A DNA stretch of 64,000 nt from Escherichia coli (lineage in GTDB: Bacteria > Pseudomonadota > Gammaproteobacteria > Enterobacterales > Enterobacteriaceae), in NCBI RefSeq assembly GCF_044324785.1, contig NZ_CP172127.1. One strand, 5' to 3'. Positions 2,715-41,807 of the stretch are shown piece after piece (the first letter of the stretch is position 1; each line of letters begins with the position of its first letter). A program made the position numbers and the translations under genes. The notes beneath the pieces are model-generated. The model worked only from the letters and a program-made list of their open reading frames with translations. It made no database searches and had not been told where the DNA came from.

Positions 2715-3277
2715 CAGGCGTGTCCTGCCACACCAGGCATGGTGAGAATATCCACACCAATCAGTTTTGCCGCCTCGCGCCAGCGGTCGGCAATCGGCGT
2801 TTTGAACAGAATATTCAGATCTGCCGGGGCCGTTAGCCACGCGTTATCGAGAATTTCTTGTTCCAGTTGACCTTTCTCCCAGGAGGCATAACCCAGAGCC
2901 ACCAATACGTCAGACGGTTGTTTATCGGTGCCGAGCGTTTCCAGCACATCGCGGGAAGTGGTCATCACTGTGTTGTCTGAAATGCGAATGCTGGAAGCAA
3001 AATTGGAGGGCGGAGTATGCAAAATAAACCCGCGATCTTCAGCCAGCGGACCGCCGAGCATAACCGGTTTATCCAGACGGATTGATTCATCACGCGGCTC
3101 CGGCGTGATCTTCAGCTTTTCCAGAATCCCTTCAATTTTGAGATTTTCCAGCGGCTTGTTGACGATGATCCCCATTGCACCATTGGTATTATGTTCGCAA
3201 ATGTAGACCACGGAACGACGGAAAATCGGATCCTGGAGAGCAGGCATGGCAATAAGAAAGTGATGCTGTAAATTCAT
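2714..3277 (-). CDS. yqgE: YqgE/AlgH family protein
   Basis: Start at [12 protein letters not shown] (187 aa). Confidence 0.9.
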
Positions 3278-29712: not shown

Positions 29713-30453
29713 GTGAAGTTCAAAGTTATCGCCCTGGCGGCATTAATGGGTATTAGCGGGATGGCAGCGCAGGCTAACGAATTGCCGGATGGACCGCATA
29801 TTGTCACCTCCGGTACGGCAAGCGTGGATGCGGTGCCAGACATTGCCACTCTTGCGATTGAAGTCAACGTGGCCGCGAAGGATGCCGCTACTGCTAAGAA
29901 ACAGGCTGATGAGCGCGTCGCACAATACATTTCCTTCCTTGAACTCAATCAGATCGCGAAAAAAGATATCAGCTCAGCGAACTTACGCACCCAGCCAGAT
30001 TATGATTATCAGGATGGTAAAAGTATCCTGAAAGGCTACCGCGCTGTGAGAACGGTGGAAGTCACGCTCCGTCAGTTAGACAAACTGAATTCCTTGCTGG
30101 ATGGCGCGCTGAAGGCGGGTCTTAACGAAATTCGTTCTGTGTCGCTGGGCGTGGCGCAGCCGGATGCCTATAAAGACAAAGCGCGTAAGGCTGCGATTGA
30201 TAACGCGATTCATCAGGCGCAGGAACTGGCGAACGGCTTTCATCGTAAACTGGGGCCGGTATATAGCGTGCGCTACCATGTTTCCAACTATCAGCCCAGC
30301 CCAATGGTGCGGATGATGAAAGCCGATGCCGCGCCGGTGTCCGCCCAGGAAACTTACGAGCAGGCCGCTATTCAGTTTGATGATCAGGTCGATGTGGTCT
30401 TCCAGTTAGAACCTGTGGATCAACAACCCGCTAAAACACCTGCAGCACAATAA
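29713..30453 (+). CDS. yggE: periplasmic oxidative-stress defence protein YggE
   Basis: 246-aa ORF from GTG: MKFKVIALAALMGISGMAAQA with signal peptide. Confidence 0.9.
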   Translation: MKFKVIALAALMGISGMAAQANELPDGPHIVTSGTASVDAVPDIATLAIEVNVAAKDAATAKKQADERVAQYISFLELNQIAKKDISSANLRTQPDYDYQDGKSILKGYRAVRTVEVTLRQLDKLNSLLDGALKAGLNEIRSVSLGVAQPDAYKDKARKAAIDNAIHQAQELANGFHRKLGPVYSVRYHVSNYQPSPMVRMMKADAAPVSAQETYEQAAIQFDDQVDVVFQLEPVDQQPAKTPAAQ

Positions 30454-30460
30454 TACTTGT

Positions 30461-30482
30461 AGCCCGACGTATTCGTCGGGCT
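30461..30482 (+). terminator. hairpin after yggE
   Basis: agcccgacg-tatt-cgtcgggct 9-bp stem; weak U-tract. Confidence 0.45.
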
Positions 30483-30620
30483 AATGCCTTTACCCGATAT
30501 TGCCTCCTTTTTCTGTAATTTTCTGTAAAACCATGACGTAATCACCTATCTTTGCTCGCGGTTTCATCAAGGATAGGCTGACTGAAACGGTTAAGCGGAC
30601 AAGGATGCGGGGGAGGGGGG

Positions 30621-31517
30621 ATGGACATTTTTATTTCGAAAAAGATGCGCAATTTCATTTTATTAGCGCAAACCAATAATATTGCCCGGGCGGCAGAAAA
30701 AATCCATATGACGGCTTCGCCATTTGGTAAAAGCATTGCCGCGCTGGAAGAACAAATTGGCTATACGCTATTTACCCGCAAAGATAATAATATCAGCCTC
30801 AATAAAGCCGGACAGGAACTGTATCAAAAACTGTTCCCGGTTTATCAACGACTTTCTGCGATTGATAATGAAATCCATAACTCAGGGCGTCGTTCACGAG
30901 AAATTGTGATTGGCATAGATAATACTTATCCGACCATTATTTTTGATCAGTTGATTAGTCTCGGAGATAAGTATGAAGGCGTGACCGCCCAGCCAGTTGA
31001 GTTCAGCGAAAACGGCGTTATCGATAATCTTTTTGACCGCCAGTTAGATTTTATTATCTCCCCACAGCATGTATCTGCACGAGTTCAGGAACTGGAAAAC
31101 CTGACTATCAGTGAACTACCGCCGCTGCGATTGGGCTTTCTCGTTTCTCGCCGTTATGAAGAGCGACAAGAGCAAGAGCTGCTTCAGGAGCTGCCCTGGC
31201 TACAAATGCGCTTTCAGAACCGGGCCAACTTCGAAGCAATGATTGATGCGAATATGCGACCTTGTGGGATCAATCCAACCATTATTTATCGTCCCTACAG
31301 TTTTATGGCCAAAATAAGCGCCGTGGAGCGCGGACATTTTCTGACGGTGATCCCGCATTTTGCCTGGCGACTGGTGAATCCGGCAACGCTGAAATATTTT
31401 GATGCACCGCACAGGCCGATGTATATGCAGGAATATCTTTATTCAATCAGAAATCATCGTTATACCGCCACGATGCTTCAGCATATTGCTGAAGATCGTG
31501 ACGGGACGAGTCATTAA
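30621..31517 (+). CDS. ygfI: LysR-family transcriptional regulator YgfI
   Basis: 298-aa ORF with N-terminal HTH (NNIARAAEKIHMTASPFGKSIAALE). Confidence 0.88.
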   Translation: MDIFISKKMRNFILLAQTNNIARAAEKIHMTASPFGKSIAALEEQIGYTLFTRKDNNISLNKAGQELYQKLFPVYQRLSAIDNEIHNSGRRSREIVIGIDNTYPTIIFDQLISLGDKYEGVTAQPVEFSENGVIDNLFDRQLDFIISPQHVSARVQELENLTISELPPLRLGFLVSRRYEERQEQELLQELPWLQMRFQNRANFEAMIDANMRPCGINPTIIYRPYSFMAKISAVERGHFLTVIPHFAWRLVNPATLKYFDAPHRPMYMQEYLYSIRNHRYTATMLQHIAEDRDGTSH

Positions 31518-32992
31518 CCCAGCATCGAGCCGGTTGCAATTAAATTACGGTGTAAGTCGAAGACGTGGCTAAGATCGTGGTGAATATGTCCGCCGGGCGC
31601 ATTTTCCAGATAGCGATGCAGATAATCCCGATACATAGGATGTGCACAATTATCAATGATAGTGCGGGCGCGTTGAAGCGGGGAAAGACCACGCAGATCG
31701 GCAATGCCTTGTTCGGTGATGATCACTTTGACGCTGTGTTCGCTGTGATCAACATGGCTGCACATTGGCACGACGGTTGAGATCTTGCCTTCTTTAGCAA
31801 TCGACGGGGCCATAAAGATCGACAGATACGCGTTGCGTTCAAAATCACCGCTGCCACCGATGCCGTTCATCAGATCGACCCCGGCTACGTGCGTTGAGTT
31901 GGCATGCCCGTAAATATCAAACTCCAGGCCGACGTTCAGAGCGATGACGCCCAGACGACGGATGATTTCCGGGTTATTGGAAATCTCCTGCGGACGCAAC
32001 ACAATGCGGCTGGCAAAGTAATCCATATTGTCGTAAATCTTGCGCAGGGAATCGGCCGAGATTGTCAGGCTGGAGGCGCTGGCCCCGCTGATTTTGCCGG
32101 TTTCCAGTAAATGCACCACCGATTCCTGTAGCACTTCCGAATACATCATAAACGGAGGAATTTCCGGGTTTTCCCCCAGACGCGCCATTACCGCATTATT
32201 GATATTGCCCACGCCACTTTGCAGCGGCAGAAATTCCGGCGGAATACGCCCATGCGCCATTTCCTGCAACAAGAACGTGACCACGTTATCGGCAATCTGC
32301 TGGCACATGGGATTTTGCTTATCCAGCATATTACCGGCGTCGGGCAAGTTGGTTTCCACGACGGCGACAATCTTTTTCGGATCGATTTGCACATAGCGGG
32401 TACCGACGCGATCCATTGCATGGAAGATCGACACGCTATTGCGCCGCGGTGGCGCGCCAGGAATCACAATATCTGCCAGTTCTGCAACGCGCGGATCGTG
32501 ATAGTGATTGAGTTCAATGATCACTTTCTTCGCCCGCAGCAGCCAGGTCGGCGCATTACCGATCCCGCTGGTTAACCAGACTCGACCATCCGGTGCCAGT
32601 GCCGATGCTTCAATGACGGCAACATCAATGTCGCCGAAGAAACCGTAATTGACCATTTGCGCCACTTCGCTCAAATGCAGGTCAACGAAACTCACCGCGC
32701 CCTGATTGATCTTTTTACGTAAACCGGACGATGTTTGATATGGCGCACGCCAGGAAACAGCATCGGCGTCAGAAAGTACATCGTCAGCGGCGGCGCTGAT
32801 TGACGCACCCGTCAGCAGGCGAATTTGATACGGCTTTTTGGCCTCATGCTGTTCGTTAGCTCTGCGGGCAATCGCGGTGGGTAAGGCTTTCGGCGAACCC
32901 GCTGGGGTAAAGCCGCTAAATGCCACCATGTCGTTATGCTGGATAATTTCTGCCGCTTCATCGGCGGTCATCCTTGTCCACTGAGTTTCCAT
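31514..32992 (-). CDS. scpC: propionyl-CoA:succinate CoA-transferase
   Basis: 492-aa ORF METQWTRMTADEAAEIIQHNDMVAFSGF... Confidence 0.93.
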   Translation of the reverse strand: METQWTRMTADEAAEIIQHNDMVAFSGFTPAGSPKALPTAIARRANEQHEAKKPYQIRLLTGASISAAADDVLSDADAVSWRAPYQTSSGLRKKINQGAVSFVDLHLSEVAQMVNYGFFGDIDVAVIEASALAPDGRVWLTSGIGNAPTWLLRAKKVIIELNHYHDPRVAELADIVIPGAPPRRNSVSIFHAMDRVGTRYVQIDPKKIVAVVETNLPDAGNMLDKQNPMCQQIADNVVTFLLQEMAHGRIPPEFLPLQSGVGNINNAVMARLGENPEIPPFMMYSEVLQESVVHLLETGKISGASASSLTISADSLRKIYDNMDYFASRIVLRPQEISNNPEIIRRLGVIALNVGLEFDIYGHANSTHVAGVDLMNGIGGSGDFERNAYLSIFMAPSIAKEGKISTVVPMCSHVDHSEHSVKVIITEQGIADLRGLSPLQRARTIIDNCAHPMYRDYLHRYLENAPGGHIHHDLSHVFDLHRNLIATGSMLG

Positions 32993-33015
32993 TTTTACTC
33001 CTTCGTTCGCAGGGA

Positions 33016-33801
33016 TTAATGACCAACGAAATTAGGTTTACGTTTTTCGAGGAAAGCGTTCATCCCTTCCTGGTAATCTTCGCTGTCATAAACGGCGCGG
33101 CGCATCCCCTGAATACGTTCAAATTCATCGGAGTTCATGGTGTGCGCTTCGCCCAGTACACGCAGCTCTTCTTTGATAACGGCAATGGCTAACGGCGCTT
33201 TCTCAGAGATGTGGTGCGCCATTTGTAAGGTGAAATCTTCCAGTTCTTCCACTTCCACAACATGGTTGAGAATGCCGACAGCCAGCGCGCGCTGGGCTGT
33301 GATTGGCGAAGCGGTAAAAATCAGCTCTTTGACAATGTGGAAGCCCGCGTCGCGGGTCAGGTTGTGAATGCCGACCAGGTTATACGGGACGCCGAGGTTT
33401 ACAGGTGTCATTGAGAAGGTTGAGGTACTGGCGGCGATGATCAGATCGGAACTCATGATCATTTCAAATGCGCCACCCCAGACACTACCTTCCACCATCG
33501 AAATGATCGGTTTCGGGAATTTTTGGATCATGCGGGTGATTTGACGCAACGGATCATCATAGGAGAGCGGATCGCGACCGCCAGACGGTAGTTCGTGAAT
33601 ATCGTGACCTGCGGAGAAGACTTTGGATCCACTCGGCGCGCGCAAAATGATACAGCGAATTTCCGGCCGGTTGAGATCGCTTAACGCCTGCATAAGATCA
33701 TCAATAAAGACTTTACTTAAGGCATTAAGTTTTCGGCCATAGTTAAACTCAATGACCGCCACTTTGTTGATAGTGGCAACGTTCACATACTGATAAGACA
33801 T
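33016..33801 (-). CDS. scpB: methylmalonyl-CoA decarboxylase (crotonase fold)
   Basis: Start at MSYQYVNVATINKVAVIEFNYGRKLNAL (261 aa). Confidence 0.92.
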   Translation of the reverse strand: MSYQYVNVATINKVAVIEFNYGRKLNALSKVFIDDLMQALSDLNRPEIRCIILRAPSGSKVFSAGHDIHELPSGGRDPLSYDDPLRQITRMIQKFPKPIISMVEGSVWGGAFEMIMSSDLIIAASTSTFSMTPVNLGVPYNLVGIHNLTRDAGFHIVKELIFTASPITAQRALAVGILNHVVEVEELEDFTLQMAHHISEKAPLAIAVIKEELRVLGEAHTMNSDEFERIQGMRRAVYDSEDYQEGMNAFLEKRKPNFVGH

Positions 33802-33811
33802 AAAAATTCCT

Positions 33812-34807
33812 TTAATCAAAATATTGCGTCTGGATAAATTCACTGAGCTGTCGCAGGCCGGTGCGCGGTGAGAGCGTATTGTTTTTGACCGCTAAAAGCG
33901 TCTGGCGGTAATAGCGATCGAAATCTTCATTCGCGAACAGGTGATTCAGTACTTCTTCTTCGGTTTGTTTACGCAGCCATTCCACCGATTGTTGTTGCCG
34001 CACTTGTTGTAATCGACCACTGGCAGTTAGCGCGGTTTTGAAGTCGATGATGGCGTGCCAGATCTCATCGATTCCACGTTTTTCCAGTGCGCTACAAGTC
34101 AGAACCCGTGGCTGCCATTCGTCGTATTTACGTCGCAGAATATGCAGGGCACTCTCGTACATATGCCGGGCAATGGCGATATTGGTATGGTTATCGCCAT
34201 CGTCTTTGTTGATAACGATCAGATCTGCCACTTCCATCAGCCCCTTTTTAATGCCCTGCAGATCATCGCCGCCACCGGCAATTTGCAACGAGATAAAACA
34301 GTCCACCATGCGGGCGACTTCCGTTTCTGACTGCCCGACGCCAACCGTTTCGACAATCACTACGTCATAACCCGCCGCTTCGCATAACAGCATTAATTCC
34401 CGCGCTCGCTGACTGGCACCGCCCAGATGGCCGGAGGAGGGTACCGGGCGAATAAACGCCGCCTCGGCACGCGCCAGGTCATTCATGCGGGTTTTATCCC
34501 CGAGGATGCTACCGCCAGTGACCGGGCTGCTAGGATCGACCGCAATAACCGCAACCTTTAGTCCCTCACGAATCAACAACATGCCAAAGGCTTCAAGAAA
34601 GGTACTTTTCCCCGCGCCGGGTGTGCCGGTAACACCCAGTCGCAGGGCGTTACCACAGAACGGCATAATGGCATCAAGCAGCTGCGTACTTAGCGCCTGA
34701 TGACGCGGGTGACGGCTTTCCACCAGCGTCATGGCCTGGGCGAGCGTGGCACGCTCACCCTGACGTAAGCGGCGAATACTTTCTGCCAGCGTGGCTTCAT
34801 TAATCAT
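33812..34807 (-). CDS. argK: MeaB-like G-protein chaperone for methylmalonyl-CoA mutase
   Basis: 331-aa ORF with P-loop [12 protein letters not shown]. Confidence 0.92.
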
Positions 34808-36944
34808 GATGCTGGCTTATTAGATTCAGTACGTCGCGCACGCTGTCGAGCATAGGCGTACCTGGACCATAAATCGCCGCCACGCCGCGCTCTTGCAGGA
34901 AGGCGTAATCCTGCGGCGGAATGACGCCACCGGCGACTACGCAGATATCTTCGCGTCCCCATTTTTTCAGCGCTTCGACCAGTTCCGGGATCAGCGTTTT
35001 ATGGCCGGCAGCCAGTGAGGATGCGCCCACTACGTGAACATCATTTTCTACTGCCAGGCGGGCGATCTCTTCAGGTGTAGAGAACATCGGGCTTAAATCT
35101 ACGTCGAAACCGAGATCGGAATAGGCGCTGGCGATCACTTTCGCGCCGCGATCGTGCCCATCCTGGCCCATTTTGGCGATCAGAATGCGCGGGCGACGAC
35201 CATTGTCGGCAAGGAACTGCTCCGTTTGCGCAACAATGGCATCGAACTCGGTGGCCGATTTCTCAGACTGATGATAGCTTTGCGCAATCACGCCGGTAAC
35301 ACACTGGCTTGGCACCAGATAACGGTCAAATGCCGCTTCCAGCGCATCGGAAATTTCACCAAGCGTTGCGCGAACGCGAGCGGCATTAACAGCGGCAGCC
35401 AGCAGGTTTTCGTTATGCTGTGCGGCGTGAGTCAGGGCGTTCAACGTGGCGGTTACGGCGGCATCATCACGGGTGGCGCGAATGCGTTCCAGTGAAGCAA
35501 TCTGCTCGTTACGCACCATCACGTTGTCGATCTCAAGTACATCGGTTTCGTCTTCGTGATCCAGTTTGTACTTATTGACACCAACGATGACACGCTTGCC
35601 CTGGTCGATCAACGACTGTTCGCGCGCGGAGGCCTCTTCGATCATTCGTTTTGGCAGACCTGCTTCGATCGCTTTCGCCATGCCACCGGCTTCGTCGATC
35701 TGTTGGATAATGGCTCTGGCTTGTTTGACGATTTGATCGGTCAGTGATTCAACGTAATAGGATCCGGCCAGTGGATCGACGGTGCGGCAGAGTTCTGATT
35801 CTTCCTGAATGATGATCTGGGTATTGCGGGCAATGCGTGCTGAGAAATCGGTAGGCAAACCAAGCGCTTCATCAAAGGCGTTGGTATGCAGTGACTGAGT
35901 ACCGCCCAGCGTTGCAGCCAGTGCTTCAATGGTGGTGCGGATAACGTTGTTATACGGATCCTGTTCAGTCAGGCTCCAGCCTGAGGTCTGGCAGTGGGTA
36001 CGCAGCGCCAGTGATTTAGGATCCTGTGCGCCAAATCCACTGACCGCTTCGCTCCATAAAAAACGTGCCGCACGCAACATGGCGACGTTCATAAACAGAT
36101 CCATGCCGATGCCGAAGAAGAACGACAGGCGAGGAGCGAAGTCATCAATTTTCAGCCCAGCGGATATTGCTGCTTTGATGTACTCAATCCCATCGGCGAG
36201 CGTAAATGCTACCTGCTGCACGCAGTTGGCACCCGCTTCACCCATGTGGTAACCGCTGATACTGATGGTATTAAATCGCGGCATGTTGCCGGAACACCAG
36301 GCGATGATGTCGGCGATAATGCGCATTGACGGTTTTGGCGGGTAAATATAGGTGTTGCGGCAGAGGTACTCTTTGAGGATATCGTTTTGAATGGTGCCGG
36401 TCAGTTTATCAGGTGTAACACCTTGCTCTTCCGCGGCGACGATATAAAACGCCAGTACTGGTAGCACTGCGCCATTCATGGTCATCGAAACCGACATTTT
36501 ATCCAGCGGGATCTGGTCGAACAGGACTTTCATATCTTCCACGGTGTCGATAGCGACGCCCGCTTTGCCGACGTCGCCCGCCACGCGTGGGTTATCGGAG
36601 TCGTAGCCTCGGTGGGTGGCAAGGTCAAACGCAACGGAAAGACCTTTTTGCCCGGCGGCCAGGTTACGGCGATAAAAAGCGTTGGACTCTTTTGCTGTTG
36701 AAAAACCAGCATACTGACGGATGGTCCACGGTTGGGCGGTATACATAGTGGCACGCGGGCCACGAACGTAGGGAGGCAAACCAGGAAGGGTACCTGTCAC
36801 CTCCAGATTATCGAGATCGGCTTCGGTATACAGCGGCTTGATGGCGATCCCTTCCGCGGTTTGCTGAACCAGCGAGTCGACAGTTTTCTCCCGACGGCTC
36901 AATTCCTTGTTGGCAAGCTGTTGCCACTCCTGCACGTTAGACAT
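34800..36944 (-). CDS. scpA: B12-dependent methylmalonyl-CoA mutase (Sbm)
   Basis: Start at [25 protein letters not shown] (714 aa). Confidence 0.94.
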
Positions 36945-37147
36945 TATTTGCTCCGTAAAACGCAATCAAAATGAGGGTATTTGCGCCTACGGTGAGCTTT
37001 TTACGTGGGTTTGTCGCCAGCAAAAAAAATGCATTCAGACGTCGTTTTTTGCCGCCTGAGATTTGTCTATTTTGTGATGTGATTCAAGGAATACAAAAAG
37101 AAGTGAGGACAACGCCTGATATGTGCTATCAGGCATTATTTGATGGA

Positions 37148-38041
37148 TTAATCCTGACGAAGGACTTTGTGACCATAATCGAGTAACGCATCAGTGACTT
37201 TACGCATCATGCGGCTTTCAGGAGCAAAGCGGTGCCAGTAGAGCATCCGTCGTTGAAATAGCCCAGGCGTTAAGTCAATCAGTTCACCGCTGGCCAGCTC
37301 TTTCTCGATTTGCAGGTGCGGGATCATACAGCAGGTGGTGCCCTGGCGAGCAAGTTGCACGAACGCTTCTGAAGAATTAACGATATGGCACGGTACGCTG
37401 CCTGGGGGCAGATCGAAGTTTTGCTGCAAAAAGGCCTGGTGCATATCGTCAAGATGGTCAAAGGCGACCACTGGCGCTTTTAGCAGAGCCGAACGCGTTA
37501 CGCCGTTAGGGAAATATTTTTCGGCAAACGGTTTTGAGCTGACGAACAGATAGTCGAGCGCACCGAGCTTATCGACAAGACAACTCGGCAGCGCCTGATG
37601 TTGAATACTCACCGCGCCGACCACTTCGCCGCGGCGCAGACGTTCCTGAGTGCGGGTTTCATCTTCTACCTGCAAGTTGAGGCGGATAGGCGAATCAGCC
37701 AACACAGGAGCCAGCGCCGGAAGCAACCACGTCGCCAGACTGTCGGCGTTGACCGCCAGTGAAAGCAGCAGCGGAGTCGAACCGGTTTGTTCATCGCCCA
37801 GCCACTCTTCTTCCAGCAACTCCACCTGGCGTAGCAGTGCCAGCAGTTTTTGCCCTTGTTCTGTCGGGCGCGGTGGTACGGTACGCACCAACAGCGGCTG
37901 CCCGAACATATTTTCCAGTTGCTTAATGCGCTGTGAGACGGCTGATTGTGTAATGCACAGCTTTTGTGCCGCGCGCTCAAATCCTCGTTCACGTATCACC
38001 GCATCCAGTGCCTGTAATGTTCTGTAGTCCGGGCGTTTCAT
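37148..38041 (-). CDS. argP: LysR-family regulator ArgP (IciA)
   Basis: Start at [43 protein letters not shown] (297 aa). Confidence 0.93.
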
Positions 38042-38423
38042 TGCTGTTGTCTGCTCCTGGTAAATGCTTTTTCCTGCACTATGACACAATTTTGTGTCAG
38101 GTTGCATATACCGAAGCCGTCGGCGGGTAACATTTGTATTCGTGGTTAAACGCGCAGCTTAAAAGATCAGGGATTTGCGCTAATGCATTTCGCTCAGCGA
38201 GTTCGCGCCCTGGTTGTGTTGAATGGCGTGGCGTTATTGCCTCTGTTCGCACCGTGGAGCGGCATACCCAGACCGTTGTATGCTTTATTTGCCGGGCGAA
38301 AGGGGATGCCCGCCATTGCGCGATATTTTATGGATGAGTTAACCATGCGGCTTGCCAACGGGGTCTGAATCGCTTTTTTTGTATATAATGCGTGTGAAAT
38401 TTCATACCACAGGCGAAACGATC

Positions 38424-39083
38424 ATGACGCAGGATGAATTGAAAAAAGCAGTAGGATGGGCGGCACTTCAGTATGTTCAGCCCGGCACCATTGTTGGTGT
38501 AGGTACAGGTTCCACCGCCGCACACTTTATTGACGCGCTCGGTACAATGAAAGGCCAGATTGAAGGGGCCGTTTCCAGTTCAGATGCTTCCACTGAAAAA
38601 CTGAAAAGCCTCGGCATTCACGTTTTTGATCTCAACGAAGTCGACAGCCTTGGCATCTACGTTGATGGCGCAGATGAAATCAACGGCCACATGCAAATGA
38701 TCAAAGGCGGCGGCGCGGCGCTGACCCGTGAAAAAATCATTGCTTCGGTTGCGGAAAAATTTATTTGTATTGCCGACGCCTCCAAGCAGGTTGATATTCT
38801 GGGCAAATTCCCGCTGCCAGTAGAAGTTATCCCGATGGCACGTAGTGCAGTGGCGCGCCAGCTGGTGAAACTGGGCGGTCGTCCGGAATACCGTCAGGGC
38901 GTGGTGACCGATAATGGCAACGTGATCCTCGACGTCCACGGCATGGAAATCCTTGACCCGATAGCGATGGAAAACGCCATAAATGCGATTCCTGGCGTGG
39001 TGACTGTTGGCTTGTTTGCTAACCGTGGCGCGGACGTTGCGCTGATTGGTACACCTGACGGTGTCAAAACCATTGTGAAATGA
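38424..39083 (+). CDS. rpiA: ribose-5-phosphate isomerase A
   Basis: Start at [35 protein letters not shown] (219 aa). Confidence 0.95.
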
Positions 39084-40749: not shown

Positions 40750-40898
40750 GCTGTAACGGTAAAGCCCTCACCGAAGCGAGGGCTTGAAGGAGAAGGGTTA
40801 TGATGCGACTTGTCATCATACTGATTGTACTGTTACTCATAAGTTTCCCAGCTTATTAACAGTCAGTCTCAGGGGAGGAGTCATCCTCCCTTACCCTT
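40750..40898 (-). ncRNA. sibC: antisense antitoxin sRNA SibC (ends approximate)
   Basis: Reverse-strand promoter-like TTGACA (40929-40934), 17-nt spacer, TAATTT (40906-40911), just outside the ibsC stop; Sib RNAs are fully antisense to ibs ORFs; ends inferred. Confidence 0.5.
40800..40859 (+). CDS. ibsC: type I toxin IbsC (19-aa hydrophobic peptide)
   Basis: ATG 40800; translation MMRLVIILIVLLLISFPAY; SD gaaggag upstream; in the serA-ygfA gap where K-12 has sibC/ibsC. Confidence 0.75.
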   Translation: MMRLVIILIVLLLISFPAY

Positions 40899-40959
40899 AC
40901 TCACTAAATTAGGTTAAAGAATCAACGATGTCAATCAGGGCGATGCAGGTGTGTCGCCC

Positions 40960-41580: not shown

Positions 41581-41765
41581 AGGGAATCTCCGAGATGCCG
41601 CCGCAGGCTGTAACCCTTGAACCCTTGGTTCAAGGTGAATGTGTCGTCGCAGTTTTAAGGCTTCTCGGACGGACCGAGCATGCTCACCAACCGCGGAGCG
41701 CCACATTCTTGTGGTATGAAATATCGGCTCAGGGGACTGGCCCGCTTGCGAACATCTCAGAGAAA
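41581..41765 (-). ncRNA. ssrS: 6S RNA
   Basis: Reverse complement reads ATTTCTCTGAGATGTTCGCAAGCGGGCCAGTCCCCTGAGCCGATATTTCATACCACAAGAATGTGGCGCTCCGCGGTTGGTGAGCATGCTCGG...GGAGATTCCCT, which I recognise as E. coli 6S RNA. Confidence 0.9.
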
Positions 41766-41807
41766 TTTTGTCTTCACGGTTACTCTACCACAGTAAACCG
41801 AAAAGTG

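Follow-up and report, generated by a model that had tools for sequence, protein, structure and literature searches.

An intact sbm (scp) operon on the Escherichia coli chromosome, with signs of purifying selection and a single common deletion in B2 strains

The window analyzed here is a 64,000-nucleotide stretch of E. coli chromosome that is 100% identical to strain XDL, and within it four consecutive open reading frames on the minus strand fill the interval 31514-36944 exactly. They are co-directional and contiguous, and are bounded by argP and srsR. We identify the locus, with high confidence, as the chromosomal E. coli sbm/scp operon, intact and apparently coding, with enzymes assigned to a proposed cycle that takes succinate to propionate. 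The features at the locus are as follows.

30621..31517, plus strand: srsR (ygfI), LysR-family regulator, convergent neighbor of the operon (NF047842 equivalog)
31514-36944, minus strand: scpA-argK-scpB-scpC operon
31514..32992, minus strand: scpC (ygfH), propionyl-CoA:succinate CoA-transferase, 492 aa (TIGR03458, YgfH subfamily)
33016..33801, minus strand: scpB (ygfG), biotin-independent methylmalonyl-CoA decarboxylase of the crotonase fold, 261 aa (NF008506 equivalog)
33812..34807, minus strand: argK (meaB, ygfD), G3E P-loop GTPase chaperone of the mutase, 331 aa (NF006958 equivalog)
34800..36944, minus strand: scpA (sbm), adenosylcobalamin-dependent methylmalonyl-CoA mutase, 714 aa (NF006944 equivalog)
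36945..37147, minus strand: argP-scpA intergenic region, presumed to hold the operon promoter and leader; 203 bp, all identical to K-12
37114..37134, minus strand: hairpin just 3' of the argP stop codon, GCCTGATAGCACATATCAGGC, flagged by a terminator scan
37148..38041, minus strand: argP (iciA), LysR-family regulator, given as context (annotation; NF002964, 418 bits; protein identical to K-12)

The coordinates of the four reading frames agree with the RefSeq annotation of strain XDL, and a comparison of annotations gives the same gene order as in K-12 MG1655. Codon-by-codon comparison shows that scpA (2145 nt), argK (996 nt), scpB (786 nt) and scpC (1479 nt) have the same lengths as their K-12 counterparts; each begins with ATG and ends with TAA, and there are no internal stops. 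The proteins differ from K-12 by six, three, one and two amino acids, respectively, or 12 substitutions in 1798 codons, none of which falls inside the motifs checked. At the nucleotide level the genes are 97.4-99.1% identical to K-12, with 101 differences in total. A first-pass annotation, made from the sequence alone, had called all four genes intact and proposed a check against K-12; that check reveals no frameshift, stop codon or change in length, and the claim of integrity stands. The tight junctions it described are likewise borne out, in that 8 nt are shared by scpA and argK (ATGATTAA), followed by gaps of 10 nt between argK and scpB and 23 nt between scpB and scpC. Because the start codon of argK overlaps the stop codon of scpA, the arrangement suggests translational coupling. 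A mechanical search for open reading frames returned longer versions of scpA (from TTG at 36965) and scpB (from GTG at 33843), which we set aside as upstream in-frame extensions, as the ATG starts match K-12 and, in the case of scpB, the crystallized protein 1EF8 as well. The closest known system is therefore the "sleeping beauty mutase" operon of K-12 MG1655 itself (b2917-b2920), with which the window shares order, strand relations, reading-frame lengths, junctions and both neighbors, argP upstream and a convergent srsR downstream. The two differ by the 101 nucleotides and 12 amino acids within the genes, while the 203 bp upstream are identical.

All four proteins exceed the curated NCBIfam cut-offs, and these scores, together with the near-identity to K-12 and to the solved structures 2P67 (YgfD/ArgK) and 1EF8 (ScpB), confirm the functions that had first been assigned. 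ScpA reaches 1251.8 bits for NF006944, where the cut-off is 876, and matches both TIGR00641 and TIGR00640; it has the N-terminal TIM-barrel domain and the C-terminal B12 domain, in which the DxHxxG binding motif reads DGHDRG (residues 595-600). Its substitutions relative to K-12 are H27Q, Y295F, I398V, A500T, V537A and S565T, and a GGAG Shine-Dalgarno element lies 7 nt 5' of its ATG. ArgK scores 493.8 bits against 329 for NF006958, matches the E. coli YgfD structure 2P67 with E=3e-218, and carries a Walker A motif (GTPGAGKS, at residue 61) and an NKDD motif (at residue 200). The pair resembles other mutase/chaperone systems, namely human MUT/MMAA, Propionibacterium shermanii MutAB and Methylobacterium MeaB: ScpA aligns nearly end to end with the human MUT chain (8gju/2xij, E=4e-278) and with P. 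shermanii MutB (E=7e-270), MeaB and MMAA are matched by ArgK, and both proteins keep their characteristic motifs, for B12 binding and for the GTPase. E. coli ScpA and the human enzyme both consist of a single type of large subunit, and the P. shermanii enzyme is an alpha/beta heterodimer. The settings differ: ScpA belongs with ScpB and ScpC to a proposed cycle that includes decarboxylation, whereas the mutases elsewhere act with an epimerase and a carboxylase to break down propionate.

ScpB (486.8 bits, cut-off 257, for NF008506) is identical to 1EF8 at 260 of 261 residues, the sole difference being V9A. Residues H66, G110 and Y140 are present, of which H66 and Y140 are those expected of this decarboxylase. 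ScpC (754.5 bits, cut-off 658.7, for TIGR03458) bears the substitutions N11D and V277E; Glu277 is unremarkable, because 2NVV, the best solved homolog, carries Asp at that position. When ScpC is aligned with 2NVV and 2G39, two motifs prove to be conserved: SEVLQ, which contains the putative catalytic Glu, and GGSGDF. ScpC also scores above the threshold for the NCBIfam succinyl-CoA:acetate CoA-transferase model (601.8 bits versus 500), and so its range of donors and acceptors may be broader than its name implies.

Upstream of scpA, a consensus scan of the minus strand detects no sigma-70-like site, and the best match in a looser custom scan agrees at only 7 of 12 positions (TTGTAT-16-CAAAAT). 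A match at 9 of 12 positions is not credible, as it overlaps the start codon. At Rfam gathering thresholds, neither a cobalamin riboswitch nor any other family is found upstream of scpA, the matches in the window being 6S RNA and SibC elsewhere. The complete identity of this region to K-12 had led us to suspect unusual conservation, a notion that we reject because, across 5425 genomes, conservation of the 156 bp upstream does not exceed that of the first 156 bp of scpA. The hairpin GCCTGATAGCACATATCAGGC is probably the argP terminator; in strain R32_14_1F both arms are altered in a compensatory manner, to GCCTGGT...ACCAGGC. No T-run directly follows the hairpin on the minus strand, so some read-through past it into scpA is possible. 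In its native state the operon is described as silent or weakly expressed (PMC3850637).

The cycle that these enzymes would carry out goes back to Haller et al. 2000 (Biochemistry 39:4622), a study that PMC3850637 and PMC5512728 cite and that is reported to have reconstituted the three activities in the succinate-to-propionate direction. On the reactions, the weak native promoter, the reliance on external B12 and a possible stereochemical gap, we infer or follow the literature. ScpC would move CoA from propionyl-CoA to succinate, yielding succinyl-CoA and propionate; ScpA, with adenosylcobalamin, would convert succinyl-CoA to methylmalonyl-CoA, while the ArgK/MeaB GTPase would gate cofactor loading and protect the mutase; and ScpB would decarboxylate methylmalonyl-CoA to propionyl-CoA, which would re-enter the cycle. 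The net conversion would be succinate to propionate and CO2. The Wood-Werkman, or succinate, pathway of the propionibacteria takes succinyl-CoA by way of methylmalonyl-CoA to propionyl-CoA with the same chemistry, and also has a CoA-recycling CoA-transferase, but the sbm operon is without the epimerase and the biotin transcarboxylase of that pathway and has the crotonase-fold decarboxylase ScpB instead.

E. coli does not synthesize B12 de novo, and the operon needs a supply of it (PMC3850637). The reported product of ScpA is (R)-methylmalonyl-CoA. PMC5512728 reasons from methylmalonyl-CoA decarboxylases as a class that the substrate of ScpB is the (S)-form; the operon encodes no methylmalonyl-CoA epimerase. 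When the operon was over-expressed, propionate was not formed from glucose unless a methylmalonyl-CoA epimerase was added (PMC5512728). Because that addition was required, the textbook cycle may not run as drawn, and because the epimerase is reported to be missing, a strain with all four genes does not necessarily have the whole pathway.

Comparisons of the operon with K-12, O157:H7 and strain R32_14_1F give dN/dS values of 0.042-0.052, reflecting 84-105 synonymous and 12-15 nonsynonymous differences over 5.4 kb. Ratios of ~0.04-0.05 indicate that selection maintains the operon despite its "sleeping" name. Of 5426 complete E. coli genomes, 4275 cover 80% or more of the locus, a figure that is an upper bound for intact loci because such coverage suffices and pieces are joined across insertions. 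One common deletion of ~4.3 kb, with a single junction, is found in 1114 of the 5426 (20.5%), and the named carriers that we recognized (CFT073, UTI89, Nissle 1917 and others) are all classic B2 strains. A narrow literature search returned no description of this B2 deletion, which is not proof that it is unpublished. The B2 lineage has lost the operon without obvious harm. A more speculative reading, less likely than not, is that selection keeps the operon in E. coli outside B2 as a niche trait, which could serve in places rich in succinate and cobamides such as the gut, and that a single ancestral loss at a short homology marks B2; the dN/dS ratios are the evidence for selection, and the one junction common to the 1114 genomes is that for a single loss.

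Were the operon instead a cryptic relic, full-length by chance, untranscribed and heading for loss, one might expect several of the features described here: no sigma-70-like promoter was found upstream in the scans above, the literature describes the operon as silent and its B12 cofactor as one that E. coli does not make (PMC3850637), the B2 lineage has deleted it, and at least one further genome, MB51, has lost it through an IS1-associated deletion. However, neutral decay cannot be squared with dN/dS of 0.04-0.05 across 5.4 kb, and all four genes have kept their exact reading-frame lengths in phylogroups A and E and in the lineage of the window, which makes a relic improbable. Still less probable is that SrsR (YgfI) is a dedicated LysR regulator of the operon, a role implied when the first-pass annotation placed ygfI "divergent" alongside it. 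SrsR itself is well identified (635.2 bits for NF047842, cut-off 425; protein identical to K-12) and srsR adjoins the operon, and one B2 strain that bears the deletion also has a dead srsR. LysR regulators are often adjacent to their targets, and classic LysR pairs are divergent. The orientation had been misjudged, however: srsR (plus strand) converges with scpC (minus strand) at the 3' end of the operon, where their stop codons share TTAA in a 4-bp overlap, ~5.4 kb away from the scpA promoter region, and scpA itself is preceded by argP. The 10 SrsR loci obtained by genomic SELEX do not include the sbm operon, and the scp genes go unmentioned in that paper. The SrsR box TCAGATTTTGC with up to one mismatch has no match in positions 30000-38500; matches appear only at two mismatches, none of them in the region upstream of scpA. 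Finally, an O157:H7 strain has an srsR pseudogene (W193*) beside an intact sbm operon, and the B2 strain FDAARGOS_1259 has an intact srsR and a deleted operon. On the evidence of these two strains we also reject the idea that decay of srsR tracks loss of the operon.

A larger claim on our attention, though still doubtful, belongs to the explanation that the operon is intact but serves another physiological end, handling propionyl-CoA and methylmalonyl-CoA from other sources, for instance amino-acid or odd-chain breakdown, or running partly in reverse, rather than fermenting succinate to propionate. Under it the four enzymes are unchanged, and the direction of flux and the inputs are different. 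The operon boosts degradation of amino acids to propionate and permits degradation of isoleucine, and the route from glucose was impossible without the added epimerase (PMC5512728); its metabolic context has been termed "ambiguous" (PMC3850637); and the ScpC score for the succinyl-CoA:acetate CoA-transferase model points the same way. Against it, the reconstitution by Haller et al. 2000 is reported to have run from succinate to propionate, and in other engineering papers activating the operon yielded propionate or 1-propanol.

The sbm operon of this window is an ordinary one and is already known, its enzymes, structures and engineering uses having been published, and its correct identification as a textbook E. 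coli operon is in itself of little consequence. The distribution of the operon and the purifying selection on it bear on its role in nature. Conservation in most E. coli and absence from B2 strains, the probiotic Nissle 1917 included, bear on its "awakening" for propionate and odd-chain products, chassis by chassis. If the niche-trait reading is true, loss of the operon would be a metabolic marker of phylogroup B2, including CFT073, UTI89 and Nissle 1917.

Within 31514-36944, the ORF list places four successive reading frames on the minus strand, which fill the interval. Megablast of window positions 31000-38000 finds a match in 5,425 of 5,426 complete E. coli genomes, which identifies the window as E. 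coli chromosome. Six of these genomes, strain XDL among them, are ~100% identical, followed by E. coli 042 (99.3%). The gene coordinates below are the RefSeq annotation of the identical strain XDL, converted to window positions, except where Rfam is named.

Features of the operon and its surroundings
30621-31517, plus (opposite to the operon), srsR (ygfI)
31514-32992, minus, scpC
33016-33801, minus, scpB
33812-34807, minus, meaB (argK/ygfD)
34800-36944, minus, scpA
37148-38041, minus (upstream, same strand as the operon), argP
38183-38368, plus, small ORF between argP and rpiA, "hypothetical protein" in the identical strain
40784-40934, minus, SibC antitoxin RNA (Rfam)
~40800-40859, strand opposite to SibC, ibsC toxin ORF
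41583-41766, minus, 6S RNA gene ssrS (Rfam)

The arrangement is that of K-12 MG1655 (b2916-b2921), and the limits set by the first-pass annotation, 31514 and 36944, match the stop of scpC and the start of scpA exactly. Its observation of a complete four-gene sbm operon is confirmed, and its interpretation holds except for the description of ygfI as a divergent regulator. Codon-by-codon comparison with K-12 shows equal gene lengths (scpA 2145, argK 996, scpB 786 and scpC 1479 nt), an ATG start and a TAA stop in all four genes, and no internal stops in any of them. The proteins differ from those of K-12 by six substitutions in ScpA (H27Q, Y295F, I398V, A500T, V537A, S565T), three in ArgK (Y50F, T54A, V210I), one in ScpB (V9A) and two in ScpC (N11D, V277E). 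The sole non-conservative change, V277E, falls at a position occupied by Asp in the closest solved homolog, and is not a concern. The junctions are as tight as had been claimed: argK starts ahead of the scpA stop, with an 8-nt overlap in ATGATTAA, followed by gaps of 10 nt (argK-scpB) and 23 nt (scpB-scpC). Shine-Dalgarno sequences (GGAG, AAGGA, AAGGAG) precede ATG starts, and that of ScpB agrees with the crystallised protein; longer mechanical ORFs (721 aa from TTG, 275 aa from GTG) are mere upstream in-frame extensions.

All four proteins exceed curated NCBIfam cut-offs: ScpA as methylmalonyl-CoA mutase (NF006944, 1251.8 bits against 876), ArgK as MeaB GTPase (NF006958, 493.8 against 329), ScpB as methylmalonyl-CoA decarboxylase (NF008506, 486.8 against 257) and ScpC as YgfH-type succinate CoA-transferase (TIGR03458, 754.5 against 658.7). 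Alignments of ScpA to human MUT (E=4e-278) and to P. shermanii MutB span nearly all of ScpA, which contains the B12 ligand motif DGHDRG (residues 595-600). ArgK matches the E. coli YgfD structure 2P67 and has the Walker A GTPGAGKS and NKDD motifs; ScpB shares 260 of its 261 residues with 1EF8 and retains H66, G110 and Y140. In ScpC, whose closest solved relatives are 2NVV and AarC-type succinyl-CoA:acetate CoA-transferases, the SEVLQ and GGSGDF motifs are present. ScpC (31517-32992) also passes a newer NCBIfam equivalog, succinyl-CoA:acetate CoA-transferase ScpC (601.8 bits against 500), a name already used in some RefSeq genomes. Since both models pass and RefSeq names vary, the annotated substrate pair is not consistent across databases.

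The orientation of ygfI is where the first-pass annotation fails. srsR ends at 31517 on the plus strand and scpC at 31514 on the minus strand, so that the two genes are convergent, their TAA stops overlapping at 31514-31517 in a shared palindromic TTAA. This overlap leaves no intergenic room for terminators, and each transcript must therefore extend into its neighbour in antisense. Within srsR, at 31318-31333, the scan flags a hairpin resembling a terminator on both strands; it could end the operon transcript, yet may be chance, with 14 such sites detected where 9.2 are expected. Nor did we find evidence for SrsR as regulator of the operon: the SrsR target study (PMC9181523) never mentions the scp genes, no SrsR box TCAGATTTTGC with up to one mismatch occurs within 30000-38500, and the state of the operon is not tracked by srsR decay. 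An O157:H7 genome has a premature stop in srsR (L006 608-1504; W193*, TGG to TAG) and an intact operon, and a B2 genome with a deleted operon has an intact srsR. The B2-type strain AGR4587 carries W193* plus S92* (L003 2108-3004), which suggests recombination or recurrent mutation for the same stop in two distant lineages; srsR is intact in the window (codon 193, 31197-31199).

The scpA promoter region is adjoined not by srsR but by argP, which shares the operon's strand. Between argP and scpA lies a 203-bp spacer that does not differ from that of K-12; it begins, directly 3' of the argP stop, with a hairpin at 37114-37134 (GCCTGATAGCACATATCAGGC). Both arms are altered compensatorily in strain R32_14_1F (GCCTGGT...ACCAGGC), which supports a conserved structure; this is probably the argP terminator, with no T-run after it on the operon strand. 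A consensus scan detected no sigma-70-like promoter on the operon strand of the spacer, a relaxed scan upstream of scpA gave at best 7/12 matches, and Rfam showed no riboswitch in the spacer. Unusual conservation of the spacer was rejected: at least 99% identity is seen for the 156 bp upstream of scpA in 4,237 of ~5,425 genomes, and for the first 156 bp of scpA in 4,944. Beyond argP, the ORF at 38183-38368 corresponds to K-12 pseudogene yqfE, is labelled a "LysR substrate-binding domain-containing" fragment in other strains, and is probably what is left of another LysR gene.

In 4,275 of the 5,426 complete genomes, the 5.4-kb operon is present at a single site with at least 80% of its length; this is an upper bound on intact copies, as point mutations and insertions may be among them. 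One identical deletion junction is common to 1,114 genomes (20.5%). It removes ~31668-35925 in window positions, from scpA codon ~340 as far as the final ~50 codons of scpC; carriers also lack a further 54-63 bp near 35965-36027, and their operon remnants are annotated as partial pseudogenes. Short homologies are found at both joints, TCAATG.T.GTGCGG and GGATCCTGT (positions 3130-3180 in each of two deletion loci, L003 and L004). Named carriers include CFT073, UTI89, Nissle 1917, S88, APEC O1, IHE3034, UM146, NU14, ATCC 25922, type strain DSM 30083 and O127:H6, all of which we take to be phylogroup B2. Given the one shared junction and the phylogroup of the named strains, the deletion appears to go back to one ancestral event in B2. 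A narrow literature search found no published description of it. The remaining 37 genomes have other lesions, including one genome without any match. In strain MB51 (L005 5070-6001), the locus was lost independently, by an IS1-associated deletion: IS1A abuts a truncated scpA, and srsR, scpC, scpB, argK and the greater part of scpA are missing. The operon in the window is a known one, at the location and in the condition usual for a non-B2 E. coli.

In the mechanism of Haller et al. 2000 (Biochemistry 39:4622), as relayed by citing papers including PMC5512728, ScpC would convert succinate to succinyl-CoA with propionyl-CoA as CoA donor, ScpA with adenosylcobalamin, aided by the MeaB-type GTPase ArgK, would rearrange succinyl-CoA to methylmalonyl-CoA, and ScpB would decarboxylate the latter to propionyl-CoA, for a net conversion of succinate to propionate and CO2. 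A complete operon does not necessarily mean a complete pathway, because E. coli does not synthesise B12 and, without a supply of cobalamin, its mutase stays in the apo form (PMC3850637), the operon is natively expressed at a very low level, in line with the poor expression claimed at first pass (PMC3850637), and the pathway has been argued to be incomplete, propionate from glucose being seen only with added methylmalonyl-CoA epimerase (PMC5512728).

Nei-Gojobori counts, four genes pooled (scpA, argK, scpB, scpC)
Window vs K-12: synonymous 89, nonsynonymous 12, pN/pS 0.042
Window vs O157:H7: synonymous 84, nonsynonymous 14, pN/pS 0.052
Window vs R32_14_1F: synonymous 105, nonsynonymous 15, pN/pS 0.043

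These ratios indicate strong purifying selection on the four genes. Such selection would hardly be expected on genes that never come into use, and it argues against the operon being a dead relic.
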